From Vulcanimicrobiota bacterium (GTDB lineage Bacteria > Vulcanimicrobiota > Vulcanimicrobiia > Vulcanimicrobiales > Vulcanimicrobiaceae), in assembly GCA_963714015.1 (NCBI GenBank), contig OY970223.1, forward strand, positions 1,120,001 to 1,184,000: a DNA stretch of 64,000 nt, in the 5' to 3' direction. Shown here in pieces: positions 40,562 through 58,620 of the stretch. The notes under the pieces are model-generated. The model had not been told where the DNA came from. It was given only the letters and a program-made list of their open reading frames with translations, and did not search any database. A program made the translations under genes and the position numbers. Position 1 is the stretch's first letter. The number at the start of each line of letters is the position of its first letter.

Positions 40562-40627
40562 ACGATACAAAGGGGATTCTGCCCCGCGTGCCGCGCCGGC
40601 GAAAGGAAAGCCGGCGTTGATGGCAAG

Positions 40628-40673
40628 GTAGGGGCGCTTCCCCATGCCGCAGGGGCCGCCCTAACGCTATGCT
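40628..40673 (+). promoter_or_regulatory. LuxR-type box plus -10 (module 1, short gene)
   Basis: GTAGGGGCGCTTCCCCAT, 22 nt, TATGCT, 6 nt, GTG. Confidence 0.7.
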
Positions 40674-40679
40674 AGGGCC

Positions 40680-41238
40680 GTGCCAATCTCGGACGTCCTC
40701 GCCACGGTTTTGCTGCAGCGGATGCGCGATATGGATCGTGCCGAACGAAGTGTGCTCGATGTACGCATCGGTCATGGGTCAGCGGTTTCGGCTTGCCGTG
40801 CTGGCCGCAGCGACCGGACTATCGGAAGAACGCGTTCGCGCCGTGCTGGAGAAGGCCAGCGTGCTCCAATTCGTGATGTGCGAAGATGGGGAAAGCGATT
40901 GGTATGCCTTCCGCCACGCCTTAATTCGCGATATCGCGTACGAAGAATTTATCGGTAACCGCGTGCGTCCGATACACCGGCTTATCGCTCGCGCGCTCGA
41001 ACGCTGCGCCGATGCAAAGCACGTTCCGATCGACGATCTCGCGTACCACTCCTGGGCCGCCGGCGATGCCGAGCGCTGCGTGCGCTATAACGAACTTGCA
41101 GGCGATAGAGCCGCGGGGGCCTTTGCAAACCACGATGCTCGAATTTACTATGCGCGCGCGCGCGAGTTTGCAGACCCTAATTCCGAGCATTATCGCCGCT
41201 TGACCGGGAAACTCGTCCGGCTGCAACAGGACGGGTAG
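40680..41238 (+). CDS. short STAND-regulator-derived protein, post-ATPase helical/WHD region only (+1 indel at 40758)
   Basis: LLQRMRDMD..SVL..ASVMGQRF..FRHALIRD..Y..HRLIARALE..LAYHSWAAGD; paralog of 56555-57109. Confidence 0.75.
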
Positions 41239-41258
41239 CCGGCGTCACGCGCCGAAAA

Positions 41259-43962
41259 GTGCGCCATGAGGCCGTCGCGGTGATCGTACGACCCGTCCTT
41301 TGCCGTCCGTTCGTCGGCCGGCGCCCCGAACTTGCGTATCTTCGGGAACGGCGGCTCGAAGCGGGCGCTTCGCGCGGCAGTCTGGTCTTCATCGCGGGAG
41401 ACGCGGGGCTTGGCAAGTCTCGTCTTATCGCGGAGTTCAGCCAGAGCTTTGGCCTATTCTCGTTGGCGGATCGCGCGCGGGCCGTGCCGCGAGTTCGGCG
41501 GCCGTCCATACGGTCCGATCTTGGATGCGCTTTCGAGTGTCGATCGCGGCGCCGCGCAGATAACGCCGGCCGAATCCAAGCGTCAATACTTCGAAGCAAT
41601 CATCGAAGGCTTTGCGCACATCGCCTCGCGCCAAGCGTTGGTCATCATCATTGAGGACTTGCATTGGGCCGACGCAGCGACGCTGGATCTCCTGGCGTAT
41701 CTCGGATCGCAAGTGCACCGAATGCGCGTTCTCGTGCTCGCGTCGTTTCGTCCGGGCGACCTGCATGCCGGACATCCGGCAGCCGCCGGAATCGAGAAAG
41801 TAGGCCACGCAGCCCGCGCGGGCCGCGTCGATCTCGGTCCCCTCCAAGGGCGTCGAACTGCGCACGTTCATCGACGAGGCCCTTTCCGGTTTCACCTTGG
41901 GCCGGAAGAAAAAGCGGGCCATTGCCCTGGCAGGCGAAGGCAACCCGTTCTTTACCGAGAGAGCTGCTCAAGAACGCAGTTCAGGAAGCAGCAGAAAATC
42001 AACAATGCGACGACGACGGCCGAGTACCGCACAGCGTACGCACCACGCTGCTCGAGCGATTGCGTCCGTTCGAAAGTGACGACCGCCGAATCGTAACGCA
42101 GGCAGCCGTAATCGGCCGGACCTTCTCGCTCGACCTTCTCGCCGACGTCATCGGCACCGAGCCGGACCTTCTCGTTCCGGCACTGCGGCGCGCTCGCGAT
42201 TTTCAGCTGATCGAGGAACTCGCGCCGAGTCTGTTTCGCTTCCGGCATGGTCTTACGCGCGAAGCGATCTGCAGCGAGTTTCTTCGCACCGAATTGCGGC
42301 CGCTTCATCGCCGAATCGCGGTCAGTTTAGAGAACGCACTCACCGGCGAACGGTCGGTCGAAGCGCTCGCGTATCATTGGTGGGCCGCGGGCGACGACGA
42401 GTGTATCGTCCGGTGATAACGAATTGGCAGGCGATGCCGCACGCCAAGTATTTGCGACGACAATGCTATCGCATTTTACGAGCGCGCGTTGGAATCGAGG
42501 AAGGTCGAACCAATCGTGCAAGGTTCAATTTTAGAGAACATTGCCAATCTGCGATTGTGTCAGCATGGCTGAAGAAGGTCCGGCGACCGTATTCTCCGGT
42601 GGTGTACGTCTTCAAGGCTGCGCGGACCGTTCAAGCGGGAAGCGGTGTGAAGCACTAGTGGCGATGACTGCCTACAGAGCGATCTTGCCGGTAGGAGTGC
42701 TTCACTCGAACAAATGCTCGAACGTTTGGAGCCCGGCGAATATCTCGCTCGCGCTCGGCTTCATCTGGGCATCGCCTGGATTGCGCAGGCGTTGCGTTTT
42801 CCGTCGCGCGCAAGCGTCGCATCTCGCTCTGGTCGATCCTCGCGCCGCGGGGATGCGGCCGCGTTCGGTGCGGTATCACAACGTCGCAGCGCGTCACGCT
42901 GCGGCGCTCGGAGATGAGCAGGGTTTTCGCCGCGAGCAGCGGCTTGGCACGATCCAGCGCGCTCGCACGGCGCGGCGCGATACCGGCGTTTAATACAATG
43001 GAGCGGAGTTCTTCCCATCCTTCGGTTTCATGAAGAAGCGCGTCGAAAATATTCGCAAAGCGCTGGACGTCGCGCGCGAAAAGAAAGCCGGCACGTCGAA
43101 GAGGCACCTACGCCACGGCGGCGCTGGCCACAAATGAGCGGCGATTGGCAAGCGGCCCGCACTGCGGTCGAATCGGTTTCCACGACGTCCGATAACCGTG
43201 TCAATATCACGTTTCGACGGCTGCGGGAACCGCCGTTGGAACGTATCTCGGCGATGAGGCTTTGATCGAAAAATGGTGCGACGGATCGAAGATACGATGA
43301 CAATCGCTCCCGAGATCGAATGCGGGCACGGTTTCGCGGAAGTTCTCGTTCGCAGAGGCCGTCACAAGGATGCGCAGCGGCTGCTGCATCGCGTACTCCC
43401 AAAATGCGAAGTAGTGCGGGGAGAGGTTCTGATGCTGCTCGCGATAGCGCGGTACGGAGCGACGGAAGATCGTGTTCAGGCACGCGAATATCTCGCGCGC
43501 GCCGGCGAGATGGGTGATTCGCTCGAGCGTTGCGCGTTGGCGCTCTTCGATGCGATCTGCGCAGACGATCGCGAAAGCGCGCCGCGTTTGGCCTTTGAAG
43601 CAGCCGAGGGTTTCAAGCGTTTCCGAACGCCGCTTCTGGAAGCCGCCGCGCGCGAAATCGCCGGAGACCTCGATTCAGCCCTCGCGTTGTACCGTCGCTG
43701 CAGCGCCGCATACCACGTGCGTCGGCTCGAAGGAACCCGTCCGACCGGCAGCGATGCGCTCGCATCGCACGATTCTCCCGAGTTTTCGGAATTTTCTGCA
43801 CGTGAACGTGAAATCGTCGTGCTGGCCGCGAACGGCGAATCCAATTTAGAGATCGCACGCAGCCTTTCAATTAGTCATAAAACCGTCGAAAAGCACCTTG
43901 GCGCGGCCTATCAAAAGCTCGGCGTCTCCTCGCGGCGACAACTACGGTCCTACGTTAAGTAG
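41259..43962 (+). pseudogene. AAA-ATPase/LuxR (LAL/MalT-like) regulator with many frameshifts (pseudogene or assembly errors)
   Basis: FVGR..GDAGLGKSRL, IEDLHWAD, GNPFF, FRHGLTRE, C-terminal LuxR HTH; colinear with intact paralog 53821-56514. Confidence 0.85.
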
Positions 43963-43965
43963 AAA

Positions 43966-44011
43966 GTAGGGTCGCCCACCCATACCGCGGCACGCGCCGC
44001 TCCCGTACGAT
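43966..44011 (+). promoter_or_regulatory. LuxR-type box plus -10 (module 1, propeller gene)
   Basis: GTAGGGTCGCCCACCCAT, 22 nt, TACGAT. Confidence 0.7.
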
Positions 44012-44046
44012 GGCCTGGAACCGCTACTGTCGTGGCACCGGCCACC

Positions 44047-45449
44047 ATGAAGGGAGCATTCGCTGTGAGGCGAATCTTACAAAAAATCGCAACAACCACG
44101 GTCCTGCTCGGATTTCCCGCACTTGCAGCCGGCTGCTCGCCGGGCGGTGCCGGGGGCACACCGGTGACCCCCGCGTCGATCCAACTCTCGCCGCGAACCT
44201 TTGCGGCGCAAACGGCGAACTTCTCTCCGGCCCCGGTACTGCGCCATGGCCGCAATTCGGCTACGGGGCCGGCCATACCGGATTCAATCCGCTCGAGACG
44301 ACCATCACCACTCAGAACGTTTCGAACCTACAGGTGGCCTGGAACGATCAGTCGATCGTTCAAGCCGGCGGAATCGTTGTGGACGGCGGCGTCGCCTACG
44401 TCGATGACATGGGCCAATCCAACGCGGGGCTTTATGCGCTTGACGCAACGACGGGCGCGCAGAAGTGGTATGCAAACGTCAGACTCAACGGCGCGTGGGG
44501 CAACTTCACGCATGCGGTTTCGGCGATTTCCGGCAGTATCGTGGTGACACCGTGCAGCAACGGCTCATCCACGGCGTTCCTCACCGGGCTCTGCGGCGTC
44601 AGCGTGACAACCGGTAAGATTATGTGGCGGAGATACTGCACGGAATATCAAGGCAATCCGTGCGGCGGTCTGGTCGGCGGCGGTTCATCTCCGACCCTGT
44701 ATGACGGACGCATCTTTTTTCAGAGCACGCAAGGCGTGAACGAACAGCCCGATACCCAAGCACTCAATCCGAGCACCGGCAAGATCCTTTGGGATGATGC
44801 CGGCGTGTACCGCTGCCCGGACGCCGGCGAATCGAGCTCCGATCCGCTGCCGGCCGGAAACGGACTGGTTTATGCGGTTCTGGGTTGCCAAGGACAGAAC
44901 GGCGCGACCGAACTCTGCGCGTTATCTACGGCGAGCGGAGCCGCCGCGTGGTGCGATCCATCGCAGCCTTACGTCCAGAACATGATCCTTGCCAAGGGCG
45001 AGCTCTACGTGACGGAACAGGGCAATAATGACGAAGTCGTGCTGGCGCTCAACGCGAAAACCGGCGCACAGTCGTGGACCGCGTCGCTGCCGGGCGCAAA
45101 TGGATGGGGCTCGATGGCCACCGCCGGCACAACGCTTTACGTTGAGGACGGCGGAGCCGGTGTGTTCGCACTGGGAACGGCCACGGGTCAGACGCTGTGG
45201 AGTCAGACGTCGAACGCGAATCTGTACGACGGGGGCGTTATCTCGGTCGCAAACGGCATCGTGTACACCGACGGCGGCGGCGGCAACAACGGCAATTACG
45301 CGATCGATGCGTTCAATGCAGCAACCGGCAGCCTTATCTGGTCGAGCAGCGCTATTGGAAACGGCGCTGCGGAAATGACGCCGGTGATCGTCAACGGCAC
45401 CGTGTACGCCGGCTGCTACACCGTGTGCGCCTTCAGGGTAACGGCCTGA
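44047..45449 (+). CDS. PQQ-like beta-propeller lipoprotein (frameshift ~44220-44240)
   Basis: LAAGC lipobox in one frame; WPQFGY..HTGFNP.E and repeated ALxAxTG..W blades in the next. Confidence 0.82.
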
Positions 45450-45617
45450 TCGCTCGTCATCGGATTGCGGATCATGCAACTCACGATGCTTAGGCCCGCT
45501 GAATCTTTTATAGCGGAGCGCACATTTCGCGTTCTTGGAGGGAGGCCGGGCGGAGGCGCTGTAGGGTGTGCCTCGGCAAATTGAATGCCGGCCGTGCTCT
45601 TATCGAGAGGTCGCCGT

Positions 45618-45701
45618 TTGAAAATCCGGCCTCTCGCGTCTGCGCGCACGGAGCTCGTTGCGCGCGAGCAGGAACGCAACGTTCTTGCCGCGGCGCCGTG
45701 A
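45618..45701 (+). pseudogene. relic of AAA-LuxR N-terminus
   Basis: IRPLASARTELVAREQERNVL resembles VRPVLCRPFVGRREELAYL; decayed box/-10 at 45561/45601. Confidence 0.35.
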
Positions 45702-46170
45702 TGCGGCCGACGCGCGTCTTAAGCGTTTCTGTGGCTGCGTTGGTAAACGCGGTGGTGAGCCTCACATTCCGCGCGCTCGACGAGCGATACGGCAAGAATT
45801 GGAGGGCGTCCGGCTCTTGCGGGGCGCTCCCCTCCATCGTTCCTTGCGGCGGCAGAGCAATGGCGGCGGGAAGGGGTATCGCGTAATCCGCATTCCCGGC
45901 TGATTTCGGTCAGAGTGTGGATTGCCGGTGGCCTCGGCTCTGCACGTCTTTTGCTAATGCTAGATATCAACGTGATGGTCACCGTTCCGGTTATCGGAAG
46001 GGCTCCGATTAGGTAAAGGGATTCCACAAGCCCTGTACCATTCTGCTGCATTGGAACGTGGCGCAAAAGCGCCAGATCTATTTGCCTTCATAGGTCTGAC
46101 GGCAGCCTTTCGCGGGCTGCTCTTTGAAGAAGGCCAGACGCTCCGGTCGTTCGGTTATAGAGGAGGTTTT

Positions 46171-47160
46171 ATGGCAAGTATTATCGTGCCGTCCGATGAG
46201 AATGGCCTCATTCTGGATCCCGCCGTAAATAACATTATTAGTCAAGCCGTAAATGTTCAACCCTTCGGGTTCGAAGACGTCATCGTGTTTTCTCACGGGT
46301 GGTCTACGAATGCCGATAGCGCAATGGATGATTACGCTATCTTTTCAATTGGCCTTGCACGGACTATGTTGTTGGCGGGCACCGCCACGCCCGGGATTTT
46401 GCCTAGTCCGCCCAGATCGTCTCTCGACATCGGCATTCATTGGCCATCGGAAATCACGGAGGACTCCAGTAGCCCGCTCACTGCTCTGCAGCTATTTACG
46501 TTCTACAAAATGGAACACCGCGCCGATGCTGTCGGCAAGAACCTTGTCTATAGCGTGCTCCGTATTGCTCTTCAAGCTCGTCAGACATCCGGACCGGTGC
46601 GATTCTTATTGCTTGGTCACAGTTTCGGTTGCAAAGTCATCTGCTCCGCGCTCCAAGATCTGGCGATCGATATCTTAGATAATAGCCTCACGGTCCCGGA
46701 CGGATCGACTTGGCGAGTTGTTCTCTTGGAACCGGCGACTGATTATGACAACCTTGAGCCAAACGATATCTACGGATCCCTCAGGGAGATCGCAAGTTTG
46801 CGATTGCTCATCACCACCTCCCAAGAAGATAGGGCACTCAGCCAATGGTACCTGGACGCGGCTCGTATCGCGAATCTTTTTCACGCGCAAGACCCAACGC
46901 CGGCGCTCGGCGCCGTGGGCCCGTCGAAAGACACCGTAGCGGCTTTTGGCGGCGTGGACGCCATAGCGGTCAATACCGACTTCACTATACCTATGATTAC
47001 TGCGACGACACATCAGTTAGTCATCGCCGACCTTACGCCGGTACATCAGGCGCGTCTAGCATGTGTCCCACCTTCATACGCAGGTGGTTTATCCGGTTCG
47101 CATTCCGACATTTATTTTGAGCAAATCTATAATCTCGTTGGGGGCTTTCTGTTCTCTTAA
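46171..47160 (+). CDS. alpha/beta hydrolase-fold protein
   Basis: AGGAGG RBS; FSHGW, WPS, GHSFG nucleophile elbow, S..D.AL, GSHSDI; visibly lower GC. Confidence 0.8.
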   Translation: MASIIVPSDENGLILDPAVNNIISQAVNVQPFGFEDVIVFSHGWSTNADSAMDDYAIFSIGLARTMLLAGTATPGILPSPPRSSLDIGIHWPSEITEDSSSPLTALQLFTFYKMEHRADAVGKNLVYSVLRIALQARQTSGPVRFLLLGHSFGCKVICSALQDLAIDILDNSLTVPDGSTWRVVLLEPATDYDNLEPNDIYGSLREIASLRLLITTSQEDRALSQWYLDAARIANLFHAQDPTPALGAVGPSKDTVAAFGGVDAIAVNTDFTIPMITATTHQLVIADLTPVHQARLACVPPSYAGGLSGSHSDIYFEQIYNLVGGFLFS

Positions 47161-47593
47161 AACTACTTGTTGCAAATCACGGTGAACGAGATGCCATTAG
47201 TGCTGTCGCTCACGTTCCTGTGGCTTGCAGTGCTAAACGCCGTGCGGCATCGCGCTCCGTTGATTCCGAGCGCCCAAAACGGCCGTAAAGCTGCGGGCGA
47301 GAAATTGCAAGAATCGCCGCTACTGGAACTCCGCGCTCGATCGATTCGTTCAAAGCAATCCGCCGCTAGCGACAGATCGCCCGGGCGTTATTGCGCCGAA
47401 ACAGCGCGAGATCCCAATAGCGCCGATTGGCGCTATTTATATTCATCGTTCGGGATCGGTATCGCGACGAAAAATTGCGCGCTGATGCCCTTGACCAGAA
47501 AATAGACGTGTTGCTCGCGGGCGCCGCAGTTCCAAGGGAGTTTCGGCTGGCGCTACCTGCGCCCGTGGCCCAAACCAGCGGCATGATGCCGAA

Positions 47594-47794
47594 GTGTTCG
47601 GCGGGATGATCGTCTCGACCGTACTCAATCTTATTTTCGTGCCCGTGCTGTACGTGACGTTCGCAGCAATGCGCAAGCGCGCGACGTTACAAGTCGCGTA
47701 CTCCGGCTCGCATGCCGCGCCTGGTAACGGAGCCAAGGTTCACAGTGAGAGCGGCGCTGCCGCGAACTTCATCTCCGGCGGGGAGGTGGACTGA
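47594..47794 (+). pseudogene. C-terminal TM fragment of an RND (AcrB-like) efflux permease
   Basis: VFGGMIVSTVLNLIFVPVLYV is the canonical RND last TM; the rest of the gene is absent. Confidence 0.75.
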
Positions 47795-48096
47795 GCGATG
47801 TTCTCGGCGCATCAACAAAATTATTTCATCGCTGGGGTGTGCTTGTGGGAGCAGCCGCCGCACAAAAAAGCCGCATAGGCACATTCGCCTCCCGTTCCGC
47901 GGACAGCGCGAAAGGCGCCAAGAGTTCGTACGAGCTTCATGCTGAGCGCTCCCTATAAGCAGTGTGTTTGCTCTAAGGTGCGCCCGCCGGGCGCCCGCGT
48001 ACTGCGAGGAACCACCACTTTTACGGTTAGCGCGTCGTGACGCACCCTACGGGTGGCACGCCGTCAAGGTCGAAGGCTCCCGCAGAGGGACACGCC

Positions 48097-49893
48097 ATGT
48101 TAGGTACCGTCGCCCAACCGCTTTCTCCAAGCCGGCATTCGTCGCGGACGAGCGCAACACGCTCGCTCCTTGCCGTAATAATGCTGGTCGCAACGATTCT
48201 GTTCGTGTTGTTCGACAGCGCGGCATTGATTACGGTCTGGAAAGGATGGATTCAATACCAGGGCGTTGATTTTACGCAGCAAGGCGCAAGGGTCGTTGTC
48301 GCCGACGTCACGGACCCAACGTTGTATCGGCGCGGCGTGCGGCCCGGACAAACGATCGGCTGGCGCGGGCGCTCCGAGTGGCGCGCGGCGTTTCCGCGGC
48401 CGGGTGACACCGTGCAAGTGAATACCCCTTCCGGCCGCGTACCGGTTCGCGCGGCGTATCAGCGTTTTTCGCCGGCCCTTGCCGCTGTTGCGCTAATCAG
48501 CATTTTGGGCGCCATCGCGGTGCTGATCTTCGCCGGCATTCTGTGCTACCGAAAACCGGGCATCCTAACGATAGCGTTCTGGTTGTTCGTTGCCACGGAC
48601 TTCAACGTCGGGTGGCTCATGAACGTGTACGCTCAAGCACCCGAACCTGCAGGCTACGTTCTCGTCCTGTTCGTCCTGGCGGTCCTTGGTGGTTGGGGGT
48701 ATTATCCGCTCGTGTGGTTTGCGCTGCGCTTTCCCGACGATCGCATTAACGGCAGGGCAATGCGCATTGCAGACTACTGCTGGACGGCGATAAGCGTAAT
48801 AGCACTGGCGTGGTTCCTCTACGATCTCTCGCGCGCGACGTTCCCGGGAGCGAGCCCCAGCGTGCCGATGCAGAACCAATTTTGGCGCTATACGCTTCCG
48901 CAAAACATTCCGAATGTCACCGCGCTCGTGGCGTTTCTTTGGGTGTACGGGCGCTCTACCGAAGCGGCGCGGCAACGCGCACTGTGGGCGATCGTCGGTT
49001 TTATGTTGATGATCGCGTTCGAGACGATTGGCAACTTCGCGTCGGAAATTGCGCCCGGACTCTATCTTATCGGCAACATCGCCCTCATGCTCGCAGCCTT
49101 CTGCCCTCTCGCGCTCGTGTATGCCGTGCTGCGTCATCACCTCCTGGACATCTCGTTCGTCGTGAACCGAGCCCTCGTGTACACGGCGCTAACGGCGCTC
49201 ATCGTGCTCGTCGTCGGCTTCGTGGACTGGCTGGCGGGCAAGTACCTGTTCGAGACGCGTGCCGCTTTAGCAGTGGAAGCGACCGCGATCATCGGTCTGG
49301 GTTTTTTGCTGCAGCGCGTTCACGGTGCGCTGGAACGTGCGGTCGATCGCCTTATTTTTGCATCCCGTCATTCGGCGGAACGCCATATTGAACGAGTTAT
49401 CGCCGGGCTCGCCTTCGCGCAGACGCATAATGCGATCTTGAGAGCGCTTGTAGAAGAGCCGCGCGTTGCGCTGGATCTCACCTCTTGCGGCATATTCATC
49501 GACGGTGCCGCCGCTTTCACGCTCAGGTTCGAATCGGGCTGGACGATTGACGAGGGCGCAAAAATCGAAAGCGACGACCCGTTAGCGCGATTACTGCATT
49601 CGGAGCGGCGGCCCATCAGCATCGCAGAGGCGCATTGGCAGCCGACGATCGGGGGCCTTGCCGCCGGAACTTTGGATATTGCAATGCCGCTCTTTTCGCG
49701 CAATCATCTGCTCGGCATGGCGCTCTACGGAAGGCACCGCAACGGATCCGCAATCGATCCCGAAGAGCGCAATCTCCTGTACCGCCTCTGCGAAGCTGCG
49801 GCGGTTGCTTACGAAGCAGTCGAACTCAGCCGTGCGCGCGAAGAAGTCGCAGCGCTGCGTTCGCAGCTTGCAGTTCGCCTTCCGGCGGAGTGA
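48097..49893 (+). CDS. multi-pass membrane sensor (PDZ-like, ~8 TM, GAF-like), no output domain; start uncertain
   Basis: GVRPGQTI, FALRFP, YAVLRHHLLDI..VVNRALVY, VDRLIF, C-terminal MPL..LLGMALYG..DPEE..LL. Confidence 0.8.
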   Translation: MLGTVAQPLSPSRHSSRTSATRSLLAVIMLVATILFVLFDSAALITVWKGWIQYQGVDFTQQGARVVVADVTDPTLYRRGVRPGQTIGWRGRSEWRAAFPRPGDTVQVNTPSGRVPVRAAYQRFSPALAAVALISILGAIAVLIFAGILCYRKPGILTIAFWLFVATDFNVGWLMNVYAQAPEPAGYVLVLFVLAVLGGWGYYPLVWFALRFPDDRINGRAMRIADYCWTAISVIALAWFLYDLSRATFPGASPSVPMQNQFWRYTLPQNIPNVTALVAFLWVYGRSTEAARQRALWAIVGFMLMIAFETIGNFASEIAPGLYLIGNIALMLAAFCPLALVYAVLRHHLLDISFVVNRALVYTALTALIVLVVGFVDWLAGKYLFETRAALAVEATAIIGLGFLLQRVHGALERAVDRLIFASRHSAERHIERVIAGLAFAQTHNAILRALVEEPRVALDLTSCGIFIDGAAAFTLRFESGWTIDEGAKIESDDPLARLLHSERRPISIAEAHWQPTIGGLAAGTLDIAMPLFSRNHLLGMALYGRHRNGSAIDPEERNLLYRLCEAAAVAYEAVELSRAREEVAALRSQLAVRLPAE

Positions 49894-49919
49894 CGGCCGC
49901 TCCACGGTAAAAGAGTCCG

Positions 49920-50450
49920 CTAAGGTGCGCTCGGCGAGGGAATGTCCGCGGTCTTCAGATTGATGCGAAAGGCAGGACCGGCCGGACCACCCTGATCCAC
50001 AAGCAGAACCTTCGTCGGCGAATAATCGGCCGGTAATACGAATTGCATGGTTTCCCGCGCCGCGGCGCCCGGTTGCAGCGAGTAGAATGCGCTGTAGACG
50101 GTCACCGGTTTACCGTCAACGACCACGCCGTCAGCATCCGCGAGCGATCCCGCAAAGTAGCCGGTGCGTTCGGATTTTGTGCCGTTGGAGACTAACCAGG
50201 ACAGCACGATAGCGCGCTGGCCGGTCACAGGCGTGAATTCCGCCGCAGTTGAGGGTCTTATCGCCATCTTTCGAATACGAATTTTTCCGTTGAACAACGT
50301 CGACGAAAGACTTCCACTTACTCCTGAAAGTTGATTTGCGCCGCCGGGAATGGGCTTAGGGGTGGCGGAGACGCCCGGCTGCGCGCTTGAGAGCACGAGC
50401 CCAATCGTGGCAAAGCTAAAAAGCATTGCGAGAGCAATAGTGTTTTTCAT
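49920..50450 (-). CDS. secreted hypothetical protein (Ig-like/DUF4352-like)
   Basis: signal peptide; LQPGAAAR..FVLP; TAGGGT 6 nt before ATG. Confidence 0.7.
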   Translation of the reverse strand: MKNTIALAMLFSFATIGLVLSSAQPGVSATPKPIPGGANQLSGVSGSLSSTLFNGKIRIRKMAIRPSTAAEFTPVTGQRAIVLSWLVSNGTKSERTGYFAGSLADADGVVVDGKPVTVYSAFYSLQPGAAARETMQFVLPADYSPTKVLLVDQGGPAGPAFRINLKTADIPSPSAP

Positions 50451-50569
50451 GAGCTCACCCTAACAGGGCAATCTTCCGGAAGCAATGAGCCAAAATGCTG
50501 ACTCACCGGAGTGAGACGCGTGCGCTTGCCCGCTTACGCTGGGGCCCGCGTAAGGTCTTGCACGTCACC

Positions 50570-51616
50570 TTATTGCGCCGGCTCGGATGTGAGCACCATG
50601 CGGAATCGCGCTTTCCCGCTCAACATGCGCTCGTAGGCCTCTTGCGCGCGTTCGAGCGGCATCGTTTCGACCAGCGGCCGCACACCGGTAAGGACCGCGA
50701 ACCGCATCGTTTCTTCCGAATCGACGCACGTTCCGGAAGGCCAGCCTTTAATCGAAAGCCGCCCGCCGATCATTGTCGCTGTATTCAGTTGCATCGGTTC
50801 GTGCGCCGCGCCGAGCACCAACATCTCACCGTCGATGCGCAATCCGCCGAATGCCGCTTCCATCGCTTTGGCGGACGTCGCCGTGAACGCGATGACCTTC
50901 GCGCCGCCGAGCCGCTGCAGTTCCGCCGCAACGTCCGCCCACGTGGAGTCGATGTAATGATGCGCGCCCAATTCGCGCGCCAGCGCCGCTTTGTCTTCAC
51001 CGCGCGCGATGCCGACGGTCTCAAATCCCATCTTTGCCGCGAATTGAATCGCCAGATGTCCTAAGCCGCCAATGCCGAGCACCGCAACGAGATCTCCGGC
51101 GCGTGCCGGCGAATGGCGCAGTGAGTTATAGGTCGTGACGCCCGCGCACATCAGCGGCGCCGCTTGGGCCGCGGAGAGGTCGTCCGGGATGCGTGCGAGT
51201 GCGACGGCCGGAGCGATAACATACTGCGAATATCCGCCGTCGTAAGCGAAACCGGGAATCTGCAAATTTCGGCACGCGAGAAAATCGCCGCGACGGCAGC
51301 GATCGCACGTGCCGTCGTGACCGCCGTGCCATCCGACGCCGGCGCGATCGGCGATCTTCCAACCGGAAACGCCGTCGCCGAGCGCATCGATGGTTCCGGC
51401 AATCTCATGACCCGGCGCGCGCGGAAAGACGATGGCCGGCCAAGCGTTATTGACCGCCATGAAATCGCTGTGGCAGATTCCGCACGCGTCGACTCGGATG
51501 CGCACAGTGCCTGGTGAAGGCTGTGGTATAGGGAGTTCGTACCGTTCGAGGCGATGGTCGTCCGCCGACGGCACGCGCATCGCGAGCATGGTCCTCGTTG
51601 CTGATTGAGTAGGCAT
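50570..51616 (-). CDS. zinc-dependent alcohol dehydrogenase
   Basis: CGICHSD, PGHEIAG, CDRCRRG..C, APLMCAG, GIGGLGH. Confidence 0.94.
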   Translation of the reverse strand: MPTQSATRTMLAMRVPSADDHRLERYELPIPQPSPGTVRIRVDACGICHSDFMAVNNAWPAIVFPRAPGHEIAGTIDALGDGVSGWKIADRAGVGWHGGHDGTCDRCRRGDFLACRNLQIPGFAYDGGYSQYVIAPAVALARIPDDLSAAQAAPLMCAGVTTYNSLRHSPARAGDLVAVLGIGGLGHLAIQFAAKMGFETVGIARGEDKAALARELGAHHYIDSTWADVAAELQRLGGAKVIAFTATSAKAMEAAFGGLRIDGEMLVLGAAHEPMQLNTATMIGGRLSIKGWPSGTCVDSEETMRFAVLTGVRPLVETMPLERAQEAYERMLSGKARFRMVLTSEPAQ

Positions 51617-51710
51617 GGCCTCATCAACCGTCGCCCATCACCGGCGGTTTCATGCCATGCTCGCGTGTACGATACTTCGCAACCACGAGTAGCGCCGTCC
51701 GAGTATTACC

Positions 51711-51922
51711 GCTATTGATACGTTAACAGATCCGGCCGCGGCGAAAACCGCATCGCGTCGGCAGCGGAGAACATGTCGACATCCTGATGATAGAACAGCT
51801 TTAGTCCGATGAACGCGCCATGGCGGTCCTCGCTTAAGAGTCGATACTTACTCATCTTTCCGGCGCGCGATCCGAATCCGTCGACGTGACTCGGCTGCAC
51901 GTCGAGAATCAGCAGACCGTGT
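51711..51922 (-). pseudogene. internally deleted partial duplicate of 52888-53772
   Basis: 51711-51889 matches 52887-53065 and 51890-51922 matches 53351-53383. Confidence 0.9.
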
Positions 51923-52088
51923 AGCCTATGAAATGTGGACACTACGTACAAGGCGGCGGTTCAAACGACTACCCGCCGCGATGTCGTCTTAGTGCGCGCA
52001 CCGCAGCCTGAGTCCCGCGGTCCTGGGCGGCCCGCTTCATGGACTTTCACCCTAAGGATTAACCACCGCGGAGCAGGAATTCCACCGC

Positions 52089-52769
52089 GTGCGCGACTTT
52101 CGACAAGCGCGGGAACGGCGTCGTTTCTACTTGGAGCGCGGCATGAAGCGGACTCCGCGGGGAGCAGGCAGCGACCTGACGTTCCTTATGACGCTCCCTT
52201 TGGCGGAGGTAGAATTGCGTCCTGAAGACTTCGGAGACGTTCCGGCATTGGTCGTTGGCGGTGTGGCGGCGCGCGCATATGCGCCGGAGCGGCACACCAA
52301 GGACATCAATTTCCTAATTGAGCACGAGCGATTCCCTGACGCGAAAGCGCGGCTACGCGGCCTGGGATATTGCTTTCTGCGTTCGCTCGCGTTTCCAAAT
52401 ACGGGATTAGGTCTCTATGGCGAGGCGTACTCGAAAGAGCAAGTAGAAGTTGACATAATTTCGAGTCCGCAAGAATGGTGTCGGCAGGCCTTCCAGGGCC
52501 GTGTCGAAGACCGGACCGGATTGCGCGTTATTCCGCTAAGCTACTTTGTTCTCATGAAATTAGACTCCGCCCGAGGCGTGGATCAGGGTGATCTGACGCG
52601 CGTTTTGGGACGGCTAAATGAAAATGAAATAGAACAGTTGGTCGCGGTGACTGGAAAGTACTCGGCAGATCCTGAAATTGCGGAAGACGTGCGTCAATAC
52701 GCAGCCCTTGGCCGCTGGGAATTAGAATCTGAGCCGCAAGATCAGCAGGGTCGGCCTGGCGACAAATAA
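52089..52769 (+). CDS. minimal nucleotidyltransferase-like protein
   Basis: VVGGVAARAYAPERHTKDINFL, VDII, VLMKL..R..D.GDL. Confidence 0.7.
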   Translation: MRDFRQARERRRFYLERGMKRTPRGAGSDLTFLMTLPLAEVELRPEDFGDVPALVVGGVAARAYAPERHTKDINFLIEHERFPDAKARLRGLGYCFLRSLAFPNTGLGLYGEAYSKEQVEVDIISSPQEWCRQAFQGRVEDRTGLRVIPLSYFVLMKLDSARGVDQGDLTRVLGRLNENEIEQLVAVTGKYSADPEIAEDVRQYAALGRWELESEPQDQQGRPGDK

Positions 52770-52887
52770 ATCTTGCGCTTCTGTCCCATTTTGTGGTATC
52801 CAACCGGCGAACGGGCGCTGAAGCCGAATTGTTAATACTTCCATGCTCATCGACACCACCGCTAAGCCCGGGCTGAAGCATCTACGG

Positions 52888-53772
52888 CTATTGATACGTT
52901 AACAGGTCCGGTCGCGGCGAAAACCGCATCACGTCGGCAGCGGAAAACATGTCGATATCCTGCTGATAGAACATCTTTAGTCCGATGAATGCGCCGTGGC
53001 GGTCCTGGCTTAAGAGTCGATACTTACTCATCTTTCCGGCGCGCGATCCGAATCCGTCGACGTGAAAAACGATCGCCAAATCTGGCCGAATTCGTACACG
53101 CTCGCGCCCCTGTATCATGTCGCTCGTAAATTGATGGATGATAAGAAGTTTCTGCGGCAAGCGGTACTGCCTGATCAAGCTGGAGAGATAGGCCGATACC
53201 GCGTTCACCGTAGCCGCGTTCGTGCTCCCGATTACATCTCCGGGCACTTGACCCGGACCCATGCTCCACTCCGAATCCATCGCGAGTGATACGTCGGGCT
53301 CTCGCAAAAAGCGCTCGAAGCGCTCGACATACGGCAAGAACGGCGCGCGGCCCGGCTGCACGTCGAGGATCAGCAAACCGTGTGCGCTGCGAATTATGTC
53401 GAGATACCGCTGCACGGTATCGTCGTCAATCGCAGCGCTATATGCATTGTTGATTCCCGGCGAGCGTTGCGCGACCACCGCGATCAGTTCGAAGGCTGGA
53501 ATGACGGGTTCTCCATACCGCGCATACGCCTGTGCCGTTCCCTCGAGTTTCGGCAAGATTGTCGCAGGCGACGCGGTTCCCAAAATTCCCATGGCAGGGA
53601 CGCCCGCCGCGCCGTAATAAGCGACGACGCGATGCCCCGGAAAGAGCACAGGCGGCGGAAAGGCGGTAGCGCGCGGTGTGGGAGACGGCGAGCGTGCTAT
53701 GCGATGGGATGGTGCGGCGCAGGCCGTCAGTGCGAGAGTTGTGATGAGAACGAACGCCGCCGTACGTTGCAT
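52888..53772 (-). CDS. conserved lipoprotein, possible TIM-barrel/glycosidase-like
   Basis: LTAC lipobox; RVVAYYG..MGILG, ILDVQPG, LAMDSEW, IHQF, HVDGFG, GLKMFY. Confidence 0.75.
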   Translation of the reverse strand: MQRTAAFVLITTLALTACAAPSHRIARSPSPTPRATAFPPPVLFPGHRVVAYYGAAGVPAMGILGTASPATILPKLEGTAQAYARYGEPVIPAFELIAVVAQRSPGINNAYSAAIDDDTVQRYLDIIRSAHGLLILDVQPGRAPFLPYVERFERFLREPDVSLAMDSEWSMGPGQVPGDVIGSTNAATVNAVSAYLSSLIRQYRLPQKLLIIHQFTSDMIQGRERVRIRPDLAIVFHVDGFGSRAGKMSKYRLLSQDRHGAFIGLKMFYQQDIDMFSAADVMRFSPRPDLLTYQ

Positions 53773-53820
53773 GCATGCTTCATTCCCCGCATTGTGCGGA
53801 CGACACGTCGGCGGCCCACG

Positions 53821-56514
53821 TCACGTGGCAAGGTACGGACCGATGTGGCTGCGCGACGAGATACTGAGCTTTCGGTAGACGGATGCCAGGTGCTTCTCAA
53901 CCGTCTTGTGCGTTATCGAAAGACTATGCGCAATCTCCAAATTGGACCGGCCGTTTGCGGCGAGTGTAGCGACTTCGCGTTCGCGCGCCGAAAGCGTCGC
54001 GACGGCACCGTGCCCGGTCGGGCGGTCGGTTTCGAGTCGGCTGATGTCATACCTTGCGCCGCAGCGTCGAAATAGGACGAGCGCTGCTTCGATATCGCCC
54101 GCGACTTCAAGCGCGGCGGCCTCGAGAAGGGGAATTCGAAGGCGCCGAAAACCCTCGGCCGCTTTCTTCGCGAGCGCGGCGGCTTCGTCTTCGCGTGCGG
54201 TCCGCAAGCACACGATCGCATCGAACAAAGCAAGTGTGGGGGCCTCGGGCAATTCATCCGACGTATCTGCCGCTCGGACGAGGTATCCGCGTGCACGTGA
54301 CCGATCTGCCGCCTCACCGTAGCGCGCCAGGGCGAGCATCGTTAGCGGCTCGCCCCGCACCATTTCGGCTTTGGGAAGTGCACGGCGCAGCAGCGCAGCA
54401 GCGTCGTGGAGCCGGCCGCGGCGGACCATGATTTCGGCAAAGCCATAGCCGCACTCGATTTCCGGGGCCGCGGATATTGTGCTTTCGAATCCGTCGAACC
54501 ATTTGTGGATCAAGGCTTCATCATCTAAATGCGCCCCGATGACGGTTCCCGCCGCGGTCGCGAACGTCACATTAACGCGGTTGTCGGTCGTCGTCGGCAC
54601 CAGCTCGACGGCGGTACGAGCACGCTCGAGATCTCCGCTCAAGACATAGCAGAGCGCAGCCGTCGCATGAGCGCACTCTTCAGCGTGCCGGTTCCGCGAT
54701 TCGCGCGCGATCGCAAGCGCACGCTCGACGTTCTCGAGCGCTTCTTCATGCAGACCGAACGACGAAAAGCACTTCGCGCCGTTGTAGTGTGCGCCTGCGA
54801 CCGCCCCCGCGCCGCGCGAACGGGCCGCCTCGAGCCAACTCGCATGCTCGCGGCGAAAGCGAGCGACATCGCCAATCAGGGTGGCGACCCAAGTTGCGAC
54901 ATTGTGGAACCGAACTCGGATGTCGGACGCGATGTTAAGCGCCCGTGGATCGACTCGTTCAAGATGATATTCGGCCCGCGTAGGAGATCCTAATGTGGCG
55001 GCCAGCCAGGCGACGCCGCAATGGAGTCGACTTCGGGCCAAGTATTCATTGGAGTCTAGCCGTGCGAGCATCTCTTCCAAAGGGGCTGTTGTATCGGACA
55101 GGCTGATCGTGTAGGCAGTGATCGCCCCGCGGACTCGGCAGACGGCCTCGCGCTCGTGAGAACCCGCGCCACGAAACGCGTCGGCGGCGGCTCGGTACGA
55201 AGCCTCACCCTCCGCGGTCAACGTCAGCACGATACGGCGATCCGCAATCTTTTCCAGGATCGAGCCTCGTACGACCGCCTCGATGCCGGGTAACTCGAGC
55301 GCGCGTTCGTAGCAAGTAATGGCGTCCTCGTGAGCGTGGACGCGTGCAGCTTCGTCGCCGGCAAGCGCGTTATATCGGGCCGATCGCGCCGGGTCTCCCG
55401 CGGCCCACCAATGAAAACCGAGCGCTTCTAAAGAGCCCTTTTCTGACGCCGAGGTCTCGAGCGCCAGCGCGATCGCGCGATGTCGCGGCTGCATCTCAGC
55501 GTCGAGAACATTGCCGTAAATAGCCTCTCGCGTCAAGTCGTGGCGGAAGCGGAACAACCCGGCTCCAATTTCTTCGACGAGTTGGAAATCCCGCGCACGG
55601 CGCAAGGTCGAGAGCAACAGCTCTTCTTCGGTCTCCAGCGTCGTAGCGAGGAGCTGCAAGCCGAACGTGCGCCCGATCACCGCCGCTTGCGTCAGGATGC
55701 GTCTTTGAGCGTCGTCGAACGGGCGTAAACGCTCGAGCAGCGTCGCGCGAACCATCTGCGGAAGCTCGCGGTCTCTGGCAAAGCTGACGTGCTCCGAACT
55801 TTTCTCGACGGCGCTTTTGAGCAGCTCCTCGGTGAAGAATGGATTTCCGTCAGCCGCAAGCGCGACCGCCCGGCGCGTCTCTTCGGGTAACGCGATGCCT
55901 GCCAGCGCTTCGTCGATGAACGTTCGCAGTTCGGTACCGCGCAGCGGGGCAAGATCGATTCGACCCGCCCGCGCGTTTCGCGCGATCTTCGCGACGGCGA
56001 CAGTCGCGGGATTCTCCGAGTTAAGTTCGTCGGTACGGAATGACGCGATGACCAAAACGCGCATGCGCTGCAGTTTCGAGCCGAGATAGGCGAGCAGCTC
56101 CAACGTCGCCGCGTCGGCCCAATGCAAGTCTTCGATAACGACGCCTAGCGCGGTGCGTGAAGCAATCGAAGCTAAACGATCGATGATCGCGTCGAACTGC
56201 TCGCGCTTCGTCGCCGCGCCGAGCTCGAACGGACGTGTATCGACGCGCGCGAGCACGTCAATGATTGGTCCATACGGCCGGCTCGCGAACTCCAAGCAAG
56301 TGCCTTGACCGATTTTCCAGCGCGAGTACACCAGTGAGCCGCAGAACTCTGCGATCAATCGCGATTTGCCGACCCCGGCATCACCGGCGATTAGCACCAG
56401 GCCACCATGAGAAGAGGCCGCTTCGAGCCGGCGCTCGCGCAAATATGCGAGCTCCTCGCGGCGTCCTACAAATGGCCGGCAAAGCACAGGTCGGACGATC
56501 ACATCGGTCGCCAT
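53821..56514 (-). CDS. AAA-ATPase/LuxR (LAL/MalT-like STAND) transcriptional regulator
   Basis: GDAGVGKS, IEDLHWAD, GNPFF, FRH.L.RE, TPR-like region, LSAREREVA..SNLEIA..TVEKHL..YRKL. Confidence 0.93.
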   Translation of the reverse strand: MATDVIVRPVLCRPFVGRREELAYLRERRLEAASSHGGLVLIAGDAGVGKSRLIAEFCGSLVYSRWKIGQGTCLEFASRPYGPIIDVLARVDTRPFELGAATKREQFDAIIDRLASIASRTALGVVIEDLHWADAATLELLAYLGSKLQRMRVLVIASFRTDELNSENPATVAVAKIARNARAGRIDLAPLRGTELRTFIDEALAGIALPEETRRAVALAADGNPFFTEELLKSAVEKSSEHVSFARDRELPQMVRATLLERLRPFDDAQRRILTQAAVIGRTFGLQLLATTLETEEELLLSTLRRARDFQLVEEIGAGLFRFRHDLTREAIYGNVLDAEMQPRHRAIALALETSASEKGSLEALGFHWWAAGDPARSARYNALAGDEAARVHAHEDAITCYERALELPGIEAVVRGSILEKIADRRIVLTLTAEGEASYRAAADAFRGAGSHEREAVCRVRGAITAYTISLSDTTAPLEEMLARLDSNEYLARSRLHCGVAWLAATLGSPTRAEYHLERVDPRALNIASDIRVRFHNVATWVATLIGDVARFRREHASWLEAARSRGAGAVAGAHYNGAKCFSSFGLHEEALENVERALAIARESRNRHAEECAHATAALCYVLSGDLERARTAVELVPTTTDNRVNVTFATAAGTVIGAHLDDEALIHKWFDGFESTISAAPEIECGYGFAEIMVRRGRLHDAAALLRRALPKAEMVRGEPLTMLALARYGEAADRSRARGYLVRAADTSDELPEAPTLALFDAIVCLRTAREDEAAALAKKAAEGFRRLRIPLLEAAALEVAGDIEAALVLFRRCGARYDISRLETDRPTGHGAVATLSAREREVATLAANGRSNLEIAHSLSITHKTVEKHLASVYRKLSISSRSHIGPYLAT

Positions 56515-56554
56515 ATTCGCCGTACGGAGCTGCGAGCCTACCGTGGTTTCCTGA

Positions 56555-57109
56555 TTAGCGCTCGTCCATGACTCGCAGCTTCGTTGTCAGACGTTCGTAG
56601 GCGAGCGAATCGGCATCGAGCAGACTACGTGCGCGAATGTAGTATGTCCGGGCGTCATCCTGCGCATGGACCTCTGCGGCGTTGTCTCCGGCGAGCTCGT
56701 TGTAGAGCAACGCGCGCGCGGCATCACCGGCGGCCCAAGAATGGTACGCCAAGTCCGCGAGCGGCGCATTGACGGCGGCGCGCGCTCGTTCCAGCGCTCT
56801 GACAATGCTGCGGTGAAACGGACGAATTCGGGCCGCGGGGAGTTCTTCATAGATGATGTCTCGCGTGAGCGCATGGCGAAACACGTAGAACTCGCACGTT
56901 GGATTTTCCGCCGCGGTGAGTTGGAGTCCGCAGGCTTCCTCGAGTGCAGCCCGCACCTTCGATTCCGAACACGACGCGGTGGCAGTCAGCACGGAAACGG
57001 AGAAGCGACGGCCGATCGCCGCCGCCCGCATAAGGACGGCGCGCGCGCCGCGGTCCATGCGCCGCACGCGTTCGAGGACGCTGGATCGTAACGCGTCCGG
57101 AATATGCAC
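56555..57109 (-). CDS. short STAND-regulator-derived protein (post-ATPase region only)
   Basis: IPDALRSSVLERVRRMD..AAAIGRRF..FRHALTRD..LAYHSWAAGD; GTG 6 nt after TATCGT. Confidence 0.82.
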   Translation of the reverse strand: MHIPDALRSSVLERVRRMDRGARAVLMRAAAIGRRFSVSVLTATASCSESKVRAALEEACGLQLTAAENPTCEFYVFRHALTRDIIYEELPAARIRPFHRSIVRALERARAAVNAPLADLAYHSWAAGDAARALLYNELAGDNAAEVHAQDDARTYYIRARSLLDADSLAYERLTTKLRVMDER

Positions 57110-57115
57110 AGCGTG

Positions 57116-57210
57116 ACGATAACGCAACGCCACGAGGCGCGGAATGGGGGGCTACCCTATCTTTTTGGGGGTGGCCCCCCCTACTGCGTCGTCGCCGCTC
57201 CAGTTAGCCT
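57116..57210. promoter_or_regulatory. divergent promoters, each with a LuxR-type box 22 nt from its -10
   Basis: minus: ATAGGGTAGCCCCCCAT(57160-57144), 22 nt, TATCGT; plus: GGGGGTGGCCCCCCCT(to 57182), 22 nt, TAGCCT(57205). Confidence 0.7.
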
Positions 57211-57264
57211 TGGGCGAGACGGGCGCAACTTTGCCCTTCTCTTGTTCGAAGGAGAATAACGCAC

Positions 57265-58620
57265 ATGAGGACTTCTCGTTTCACGCAGTGCTCGCTTGCC
57301 GCGGCGCTGAGTTTGGTTTTTGCGGGGTGCAGCGGCGGCGGATCGCAGGTAACGCCGTCCGCAAATTCGGGCGTCATGTCCGAACCGCAAGTTGCCCAGG
57401 CGCGCACAATCTTCGAGCCCACTAGCACGCCGGTGAATTGGAGCCAGACGGATTTCAATTCTTCGCACATCGGCTTCAATGCGGATGAGAAGACGATCTC
57501 GACAGGCAACGTCGCCAACCTCAACTTCCTTTGGGGTCAGTCGGTGACCGATGGCGTCACGGGTTTCGCGCTCGTCAAAGGGACGATCTTTGCTCAAAGC
57601 TCGAATTCGTCGGGGCCTCCGATGCTCATCGCCCTGAACGCAACAACGGGAACTATTTCGTGGACGGCAAGAACAGGCGCTGATGGGTATCCCGAAAACG
57701 GGACGGTTGCTACCGGAGGGGGCGATGCGTACGTGGGCTGCGGGACTAAGGCGACGGGCAATCCCGGAGGAGTATGCGCTTTCAGTGAGGCGTCCGGGAA
57801 GCGACTGTGGGCCTACATTCCCGATTGTAAGTGTCAATTCAACGGTACCGTAGCGTCACCGCTGGTCTACTCGAACGGTGTCGTATACTATGGCGTAAGC
57901 GGTTTTCCGGGGCAATCGGATCCGTACGTCGTCGCTTTGAACGCGCAGACCGGAAAGCCGATATGGTCTTACGATCCCGGATCCGGAGCGCTCGGTAGTG
58001 CGCCTCTTGCCGTGAGTGGCGGGAACGTGTTCTTCGATTGCGTCACAGCAGGAAATGCCGAGGGGATCTGCGCCGTTAAGAACAGCGGCGGCTCCCTGTT
58101 GTGGCAGGCAACCACCGGAAATACGTCCACGGCATTCAGTATTGCGGCCGGCGTGCTTTACGCCAGCAACAATCAAGACGTCGTCGTCGCACTAAATGCT
58201 GGGACGGGAGCAGCGCTGTGGTCGTCCGCTGCCGCGGTCGGCAAGAGCGCATTTCCGCCCGCGATCGCGCTTGGCTCTGTTTACGTTGCGGGTAATACCA
58301 GCATTTCAGCGCTTAAGGCGACGACGGGAGAGCAACTCTGGTCCAATACGCTCGCGTGTTCGCCGGAAAGCTCCCCATCCGTTGCCAACGGCGTTGTTTA
58401 CGTCTATCAAGGTGGAAATAACTGCCCCGCGGTATCGGCCTTTGACGCTAAGACAGGGGCGCTGCTGTCGAGTATCACAACCTCAACTGCCTCGTTCGCT
58501 GTTTCGCCGGTCATCGCAAACGGAACCCTGTACGTCGCTGATGGTGTATGCGGAAGCCTCTGCGCCTACGTACCGAGTCAGGCGCTCAGACAGAGACTGC
58601 CGACGACCATTCTACGGTAA
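57265..58620 (+). CDS. PQQ-like beta-propeller lipoprotein
   Basis: FAGC lipobox, WSQ..F..SHIGFN..E, repeated ALNAxTG..W blades, SPSVANGVVY. Confidence 0.88.
   Translation: MRTSRFTQCSLAAALSLVFAGCSGGGSQVTPSANSGVMSEPQVAQARTIFEPTSTPVNWSQTDFNSSHIGFNADEKTISTGNVANLNFLWGQSVTDGVTGFALVKGTIFAQSSNSSGPPMLIALNATTGTISWTARTGADGYPENGTVATGGGDAYVGCGTKATGNPGGVCAFSEASGKRLWAYIPDCKCQFNGTVASPLVYSNGVVYYGVSGFPGQSDPYVVALNAQTGKPIWSYDPGSGALGSAPLAVSGGNVFFDCVTAGNAEGICAVKNSGGSLLWQATTGNTSTAFSIAAGVLYASNNQDVVVALNAGTGAALWSSAAAVGKSAFPPAIALGSVYVAGNTSISALKATTGEQLWSNTLACSPESSPSVANGVVYVYQGGNNCPAVSAFDAKTGALLSSITTSTASFAVSPVIANGTLYVADGVCGSLCAYVPSQALRQRLPTTILR

Follow-up and report, generated by a model that had tools for sequence, protein, structure and literature searches.

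The 64,000-nucleotide stretch of a Vulcanimicrobiota bacterium genome analysed here (assembly GCA_963714015.1, contig OY970223.1, positions 1,120,001 to 1,184,000 of the forward strand; hereafter the window) carries a small intact gene, short gene 2 (56555..57109, minus strand), whose product of 184 amino acids (aa) is, by alignment and predicted fold, the free-standing winged-helix domain (WHD) and arm of a MalT-type STAND regulator. Its conserved ends, substitution ratios and phylogeny mark it as a member of a genuine, selected stand-alone family rather than a fragment, and comparison across loci finds this family tightly linked to, and co-diversified with, one clade of AAA_16-TPR-LuxR regulators. 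The short protein probably tunes the switch of its partner regulator. An earlier sequence-only reading of the window had described a trio of short gene, regulator and β-propeller lipoprotein gene, present twice, as an arrangement without a known description; a literature search likewise found none, subscription journals lying largely outside its reach.

The free-standing winged helix and arm

The genome is closed and comprises 3.56 Mb, and its relatives are Eremiobacterota (Vulcanimicrobiota) metagenome-assembled genomes (MAGs). The open frame of short gene 2 spans 56555-57133; because the promoter architecture fixes the start codon, the gene is set at 57109-56555. This start, and those at 40680 and 44047 in the other copy of the trio, had been placed correctly by the sequence-only reading. 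Forty nucleotides separate the stop codon of the short gene from the start of regulator 2 (53821..56514, minus strand), an intact gene encoding 897 aa with an AAA_16 NTPase, a winged helix, an arm, a putative TPR-like sensor and a LuxR/GerE helix-turn-helix (HTH). Pfam assigns residues 14-156 to AAA_16 (E 2.4e-20) and 840-890 to the GerE HTH (E 1.6e-14), and the Walker A motif GDAGVGKS is visible in the translation. The best TPR model for the sensor region, TPR_12, reaches 23.7 bits against a cut-off of 30.1, and the remaining ones are weaker. The histidine motif of the WHD, FRFRH at 321-325, is invariant across 31 regulators. By its P-loop nucleotide-binding oligomerisation domain (NOD), its WHD histidine and arm, and its LuxR HTH, regulator 2 is a MalT/LAL-type STAND regulator. 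Divergent from these two genes is propeller 2 (57265..58620, plus strand), also intact, which encodes a BamB-like PQQ_2 β-propeller lipoprotein of 451 aa; its N-terminal signal peptide with lipobox VFAGC, MRTSRFTQCSLAAALSLVFAGC, was read from the translation by eye.

Short protein 2 aligns to regulator 2 at residues 251-408 only (42% identity, E 6e-29). Homology of both short open reading frames (ORFs) to the post-ATPase segment of the regulator had been claimed from the letters alone, and each ORF is indeed about 42% identical to these residues; the accompanying statement that they possess neither P-loop nor HTH also holds, and neither has a match in Pfam. In NCBIfam the short protein obtains only a sub-threshold match to an internal STAND stretch. 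The AlphaFold2 (AF2) model built from the family alignment (mean pLDDT 92.9, pTM 0.85) consists of one helix, a winged helix and six more helices. Foldseek returned MalT (8bob_C), Apaf-1, Avs3 and CED-4 as top matches, all weaker than E 0.001, while VIA-align superposed the model on MalT 8bob_C with a Z score of 13.3 over 166 residues (chain range 66-417, 15% identity), on Apaf-1 353-551 with Z 11.0 and on PH0952 315-478 with Z 11.0. According to PMC10427625, the WHD of MalT comprises residues 249-336 and the arm 337-423, and the conserved WHD histidine bonds the β-phosphate of ADP; the arm toggles between keeping the NOD closed and joining the sensor for inducer binding, as described there and in PMC4381067 and PMC6468293. 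The F-R-H motif and the arm motifs HxWAAGD and YNELAGD are invariant, or nearly so, in the short family and in the regulators.

Selection, ancestry and linkage of the short-gene family

A length-restricted database search found 154 stand-alone homologues of the short gene; the best 120 of these are 156-262 aa long, with E ≤ 3.8e-45. In an alignment of 34 members both ends are conserved, with V-x-I-P-D-A-V-R first and D-S-x-A-Y-x-R-L-T-x-K-L near the end, and 24 columns are invariant. Ratios of nonsynonymous to synonymous substitution (dN/dS, NG86) were taken from 31 loci with intact short-regulator pairs. In the eight closest pairs (regulator dS 0.25-0.47) the short gene yields 0.42, 0.17, 0.09, 0.15, 0.18, 0.15, 0.16 and 0.17, a range of 0.09-0.42 that resembles the 0.13-0.20 of the regulators in the same pairs; the medians across 432 pairs, many of them near saturation, are 0.28 for the short gene and 0.22 for the regulator. 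With its shared ends, its regulator-like dN/dS, a conserved promoter of its own and a single clade in the tree, the short ORF is the selected gene that the sequence-only reading had taken it to be.

A tree of 111 WHD-arm segments gathers the 43 stand-alone sequences, without exception, in a single clade (SH-aLRT 99); the adjoining regulators make up a separate one, also of 43 rows and with SH-aLRT 99. Within subfamily B, the clade of short genes has a support of 100 and that of their regulators 99. A free quick tree placed the short clade next to a different paralogue clade with weak support (SH-aLRT 86); a tree constrained to unite the short clade with that of its partner regulators improves on it by 32 log-likelihood units (p-AU 0.9). 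Derivation of the short gene from another paralogue was dropped, as the constrained tree fits better, and a sister relation of the short and partner clades is not rejected. The preferred, though not proven, origin of the family on these trees is a single old partial duplication of the ancestor of the partner regulator. Among 1.84 billion representatives, a profile search turned up no short-regulator fusion in its top matches. These do include giant proteins (1,700-3,250 aa), which are multi-NOD STANDs, 22-31% identical to regulator 2 and 24-40% identical to short proteins.

Of 401 genomes sampled from the phylum, 43 were found to hold the short gene (E ≤ 1e-36), all within one family; counted by family, the gene is present in 42 of 296 genomes of its own and in 0 of 104 genomes of 20 others, and it occurs in 13 of 116 sampled genera. 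The threshold was set after the results on 41 relatives, and two rows (G151, G359) are ambiguous. In that scan of 41 relatives the stand-alone form was present in G000, G011, G019 and G024; the tally takes in G036, a genome flagged as unpublished, which showed a match to a full-length regulator only and supports no conclusion here. A search of sequencing runs listed a small-share DNA entry in one soil metagenome study and no RNA entry.

A GTDB-wide scan gave 69 loci, made up of 44 stand-alone short genes and 25 internal segments of full-length regulators. In 39 of the 44 short-gene loci a regulator 57-67% identical to regulator 2 follows directly downstream on the same strand; in one (L060) it is divergent, 75 bp off, and four have no regulator, three with an intact short gene (L050, L054, L055) and one with a frameshifted gene (L070). 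Across the 39 linked loci, the spacing between the stop codon of the short gene and the regulator match varies between an overlap of about 50 nt and a gap of 46 nt, with most values at 23-46 nt. The overlap is restricted to three loci of subfamily B (L049, L066, L069), where the short ORF extends about 50 nt into the start of the regulator gene; the conserved C-terminal ..LPPVRWTPG of these short proteins is the conserved N-terminal coding sequence of the regulator in another frame. Short genes that are more alike have regulators that are more alike: the two sets of pairwise identities correlate at r = 0.85, a value reached in 0 of 2000 permutations, and the nearest neighbour is identical for short gene and regulator in 24 of 31 pairs. 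Part of this correlation stems from shared species history, of which the pairing of subfamilies A and B is independent.

The expectation that the short gene would lie beside AAA-LuxR and propeller genes in other genomes is borne out for the regulator, downstream in 39 of 44 loci, but not for the propeller, which by homology accompanies the short-regulator pair in only 14 of 44, namely nine of 12 in subfamily B and five of 32 in subfamily A. The trio is, on this comparison, one variant of a short-regulator pair with a variable lipoprotein output, and it is not conserved as a trio; in other loci the propeller is replaced by different lipoproteins.

The promoter box, its candidate targets and the decayed copy

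Upstream of the short genes lies a 17-bp near-palindrome, GTAGGG-N4-YCCCCAT, centred about -44. All 35 aligned short-gene promoters share one layout: box, a spacer of 22 nt (32 loci) or 23 nt (three loci), TAnnnT, exactly 6 nt and the start codon, GTG in 32 and ATG in three. Because the start codon falls at the expected transcript start, 6 nt past TAnnnT, the short-gene transcript is likely to be leaderless. The box spans about -52 to -36, a position typical of class II activators. For the short2-regulator2 operon it lies at 57141..57163 (minus strand; AAGATAGGGTAGCCCCCCATTCC), a near-palindrome again centred about -44, and the -10-like hexamer TATCGT (57116..57121, minus strand) stands 6 nt ahead of the GTG, implying a leaderless transcript.

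This box is the best match in the genome (24.7) to a position weight matrix (PWM) trained on short-gene promoters. The second-best (21.7) is the promoter box of copy 1 (40626..40648, plus strand; AGGTAGGGGCGCTTCCCCATGCC), with TATGCT at 40668-40673 and GTG at 40680, and the third-best (18.3) that of propeller 1 (43964..43986, plus strand; AAGTAGGGTCGCCCACCCATACC), with TACGAT at 44006-44011, which has orthologous boxes in L049, L056, L057, L067 and L087. Facing propeller 2 is a degenerate box (57163..57185, plus strand; TTTTGGGGGTGGCCCCCCCTACT; PWM 7.4), followed after 19 nt by TAGCCT at 57205-57210; back-to-back box pairs are also found in other divergent loci. The strict pattern occurs only twice in the 3.56 Mb, both times at short genes, and 0 times in 1 Mb of simulated sequence. 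PWM ranks 4 (18.1) and 6 (14.6) fall next to a more distantly related AAA-LuxR paralogue (420-424 kb). The match to this paralogue (G000:C1:419000-423600) is split over two frames near 423.3 kb; downstream of it on the same strand are two box-like sites (421023 and 420534), one ahead of a 154-aa ORF and the other ahead of a 145-aa signal-peptide protein, after which comes a 330-aa lipoprotein. The match of another AAA-LuxR paralogue (G000:C1:2189806-2192464) to regulator 2 is likewise split over two frames, and this may be a decaying copy.

Among 43 loci with upstream sequence, a box scoring at least 15 precedes the short gene in 34; several of the remainder have the right half-box only, overlapped by a strong inverted box. 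A further box of at least 15 was found in 21 of the 43, and in 19 of these 21 it lies ahead of an ORF with a lipobox, which suggests that the neighbouring lipoprotein genes are candidate outputs sharing the promoter box of the short gene. They include BamB-like propellers, divergent in L036, L039, L046, L048 and L071 and downstream of the regulator in L049, L056, L057, L067 and L087; a Cys-rich lipoprotein of about 213-240 aa in L040, L043, L047, L050, L051, L052, L063, L065, L068 and L077; a 450-aa secreted protein in L054 and L075; and, behind the third box of its locus, a pro-kumamolisin-like lipoprotein of 586 aa (L056:12060-13900, plus strand; PF09286, E 2.4e-16). The Cys-rich lipoprotein (e.g., L040:6227-6898, minus strand) has four conserved cysteines besides that of the lipobox. 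Neither Pfam nor NCBIfam holds a family for this protein of about 225 aa, which AF2 models as a β-sandwich (mean pLDDT 77); a Foldseek search of the PDB gave no match at E ≤ 0.001, the best being an ankyrin ZU5 domain (E 0.012, TMq 0.32). The suggestion that the propeller is the regulated output is thus indirectly supported by the box common to short genes and neighbouring lipoprotein genes, but propeller 2 itself has a degenerate one.

Two loci, L075 and L092, possess the box and a regulator, and no short gene was found in their genomes. The regulator is for this reason the candidate binder, which points to its LuxR HTH, rather than the short protein, as the reader of the box; incompleteness of the MAGs weakens this argument.

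Copy 1 of the trio belongs to subfamily B and is no longer functional as written. Short gene 1 (40680..41238, plus strand) is broken by a frameshift near 40757: from the GTG at 40680 run 26 family-like residues, the frame is lost near 40757 and closes with a stop at 40958, and the remaining homology (40759-41235) sits in a different frame. Regulator 1 (41259..43962, plus strand) is a pseudogene with numerous stops, and an ungapped comparison with its L045 orthologue changes frame at least 10 times, with 50-88% identity within segments. Propeller 1 (44047..45449, plus strand) has a frameshift between about 44180 and 44235, so that the frame of its signal peptide and lipobox (ATG 44047) differs from that of its body (44235-45449). 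The lengths of 40680-41238 and 44047-45449 are not divisible by three. A general assembly error was ruled out, for other long ORFs in the window (951, 906 and 1050 aa) are unbroken, and because these are intact the frameshifts are ascribed to local decay. Copy 1 is a module being lost as a unit, and joint decay of three genes is what is expected of one functional unit. The trio does occur twice, but only copy 2 is intact, all three genes of copy 1 being frameshifted. The short ORFs of the two copies are 55% identical over 152 aa and the propellers only 31%. Each copy has orthologues in other genomes, and by this comparison the pair is not a recent duplication. The earlier picture of two diverged copies with the same boundaries stands insofar as they represent two old, separate subfamilies, but not for copy 1 as an intact gene set.

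Several candidate functions and neighbouring features deserve mention. A role of the propellers as PQQ-dependent dehydrogenase was rejected (TIGR03075, 63 bits against a cut-off of 480; PF01011 on fragments only); the true family match of the propeller genes is PQQ_2, that is, BamB-like repeats, and an enzyme role is not implied. The PADLOC defence models match neither the short gene nor the propeller, and an anti-phage STAND of the Avs type was likewise discarded for the regulator, which obtains only HTH-level matches and a weak one to mad8 (E 0.0048). Each module copy has nearby a membrane protein of about 615 aa that carries a GAF domain at its C-terminus (48037-49893, plus strand; 59144-60991, minus strand); the two are paralogues, 26% identical over 569 aa. 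A weak box-like site (13.5) is found at 61027 (minus strand), just upstream of the second; in L081 an orthologue is encoded in the vicinity of another AAA-LuxR paralogue. Between copy 1 and the first GAF protein is a 369-aa ORF (46051-47160, plus strand) with a weak match to the α/β-hydrolase DUF900. At about 61260-61290 (minus strand) GGGGGTTCGAGTCCCCCCATCTCCACCA, a low PWM match, resembles the 3′-end of a tRNA with encoded CCA.

Proposed mode of action and known systems

The selected gene and its predicted fold, its linkage to and joint diversification with one regulator clade, and the common promoter box stand on firm ground. Three steps of the scheme that follows are inferred: recognition of the box by the regulator, contact between short protein and regulator, and inhibition as the result. 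The short gene would be the first cistron of a leaderless two-gene operon with the AAA_16-TPR-LuxR regulator. An inducer would open the nucleotide-binding core of the latter, leading to multimerisation and to binding of the box through the LuxR HTH, and the regulator would then activate the lipoprotein gene or genes and its own operon. The co-made WHD-arm protein may dock in trans on the regulator, most likely on the surface of the nucleotide-binding domain vacated by the regulator's own WHD-arm upon opening or, alternatively, on the sensor; once docked it would restrain multimerisation, so that the positive loop would carry its own brake or threshold. Taken together, sequences and models suggest about an even chance for this scheme of an operon under its own control, with a brake on the regulator switch, acting in trans, as its first product, the binding step included. 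A complex prediction for residues 1-800 of regulator 2 with 9-192 of the short protein, run on separate alignments and without controls, gave scores of 0.33, 0.00 and 0.20, the mark being 0.32, and favours neither binding nor its absence.

A number of observations weigh against this proposal. Three intact, boxed short genes (L050, L054, L055) have no regulator within 7 kb, so strict pairing in cis is not required, and partner-clade regulators occur without an adjacent short gene in L073, L075, L076 and L092, so the short protein is not obligatory. Seven partner regulators are split into frames in MAGs (L036, L039, L046, L056, L067, L077, L084), through either assembly error or decay. Propeller 2 has only its degenerate box. 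As the PWM was trained on short-gene promoters their scores are circular, and independent PWM evidence comes only from the ranking across the genome and from matches ahead of lipoprotein genes. A different factor could read the box. Support for a brake is wholly computational, and the data leave the direction, brake or helper, unconstrained.

As a helper, the free WHD-arm would build or complete a high-affinity inducer site together with the TPR sensor; or it would prop up the opened NOD and lower the threshold for activation, the short protein then being a co-activator or a subunit of a hetero-oligomer. The arm and sensor of MalT do form a high-affinity inducer site, according to PMC4381067, the short family has conserved arm motifs, and co-expression from a single promoter suits a subunit as well as it does a brake. 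The regulator, however, retains a complete WHD-arm of its own, and regulators of the partner clade manage without a short gene in four loci; we regard a helper as unlikely. A lower probability still attaches to cross-talk, in which the short protein would titrate several STAND-LuxR paralogues and not its neighbour specifically. At least five further AAA-LuxR paralogues exist in G000, short gene 2 is 41% identical to the unlinked one at 2427918 and 42% to its neighbour, and orphan short genes exist; yet synteny is tight, co-diversification involves one clade only and the two short subfamilies pair with two regulator subfamilies, which renders this reading distinctly improbable.

Residues 10-105 of the short protein superpose on the ArsR-type proteins SqrR, HlyU and CzrA (Z 9-10), and the orphan short genes retain their own box, as would befit a winged helix re-used as a small winged-HTH repressor or activator which reads the box independently. 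Such likeness is generic, though, and the best and longest structural matches are STAND WHD-arms. The STAND-specific F-R-H and arm motifs have been kept, and boxes are present in L075 and L092 and beside the 420-kb paralogue; an independent DNA binder is very unlikely. The short gene might also be a relic without function, left by a partial tandem duplication and merely carried along: it is homologous to an internal stretch of the adjacent gene family, and copy 1 shows that such genes decay. This is scarcely credible in view of a dN/dS of about 0.15 in close pairs, conserved ends, a dedicated promoter whose -10 stands exactly 6 nt ahead of the start codon in each of 35 cases, a confidently predicted fold and persistence across 13 of 116 sampled genera.

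The WHD and arm that make up the short protein are the very domains whose movements switch STAND ATPases (MalT, Apaf-1, NLRs, Avs). A free WHD-arm, under selection and paired with a single regulator clade, makes a simple two-component system for testing whether these domains can act in trans, a question relevant to the coupling of autoinhibition and oligomerisation. Should the short protein be the microProtein considered below, it would be the first case in nature of a STAND ATPase autoinhibited in trans by a separate module and a ready tool to probe the gating of NOD opening by arm and WHD in proteins of the MalT and NLR types. The analysis also provides the first candidate regulon for an uncultured soil phylum, with an operator-like box, a leaderless promoter and secreted lipoprotein targets.

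The closest known proteins are MalT of E. coli (8bob) and the archaeal PH0952 (6mfv), STAND ATPases with a TPR/SUPR sensor. In the order of its parts regulator 2 follows MalT, with P-loop NOD, WHD histidine, arm, a putative helical-repeat sensor and C-terminal LuxR-type HTH, and the short protein superposes on the WHD and arm of MalT. No free-standing copy of the MalT WHD-arm is described in the accessible parts of PMC10427625, PMC4381067 and PMC6468293. Unlike the present system, MalT is restrained by the unrelated proteins MalY, MalK and Aes. Truncated LuxR-type paralogues which lack the HTH and antagonise the full-length protein are known from TrlR/TraR of Agrobacterium and from CerN/CerM. 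As with TrlR, a truncated paralogue from the same genome acts, or here is proposed to act, on a full-length regulator by protein contact. The TrlR group, by contrast, are acyl-homoserine lactone-receptor LuxR proteins that retain the ligand-binding and dimerisation domain, whereas the module here is the WHD-arm of a STAND ATPase, encoded by an old, separately evolving family and not by a recent truncation.

The microProteins of plants and animals are small single-domain paralogues that poison multi-domain transcription factors, and the short protein resembles them in being homologous to one interaction domain of a larger regulator. The literature search did not find this concept applied to bacterial STAND regulators. 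At somewhat less than even odds, we tentatively entertain the idea of a microProtein that acts on bacterial STAND switches: a WHD-arm cut out of a regulator and maintained over long evolutionary time by a gene of its own would dock in trans on the opened nucleotide-binding core of its partner and cap or reset multimerisation. In Arabidopsis the N-terminally truncated helper NLR NRG1C antagonises its neighbours NRG1A/B, as stated in a preprint (bioRxiv 10.1101/2021.01.27.428547). NRG1C is similarly a truncated STAND-family paralogue encoded beside full-length genes; it differs in being eukaryotic, in keeping part of the NB-ARC with the LRR and in serving immune signalling instead of transcription, with no sign of common descent of the truncation. 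The likeness to TrlR, NRG1C and the microProteins would seem to be conceptual only, none of them being a WHD-arm module. New are the promoter that the short genes share and the candidate regulon that goes with it.

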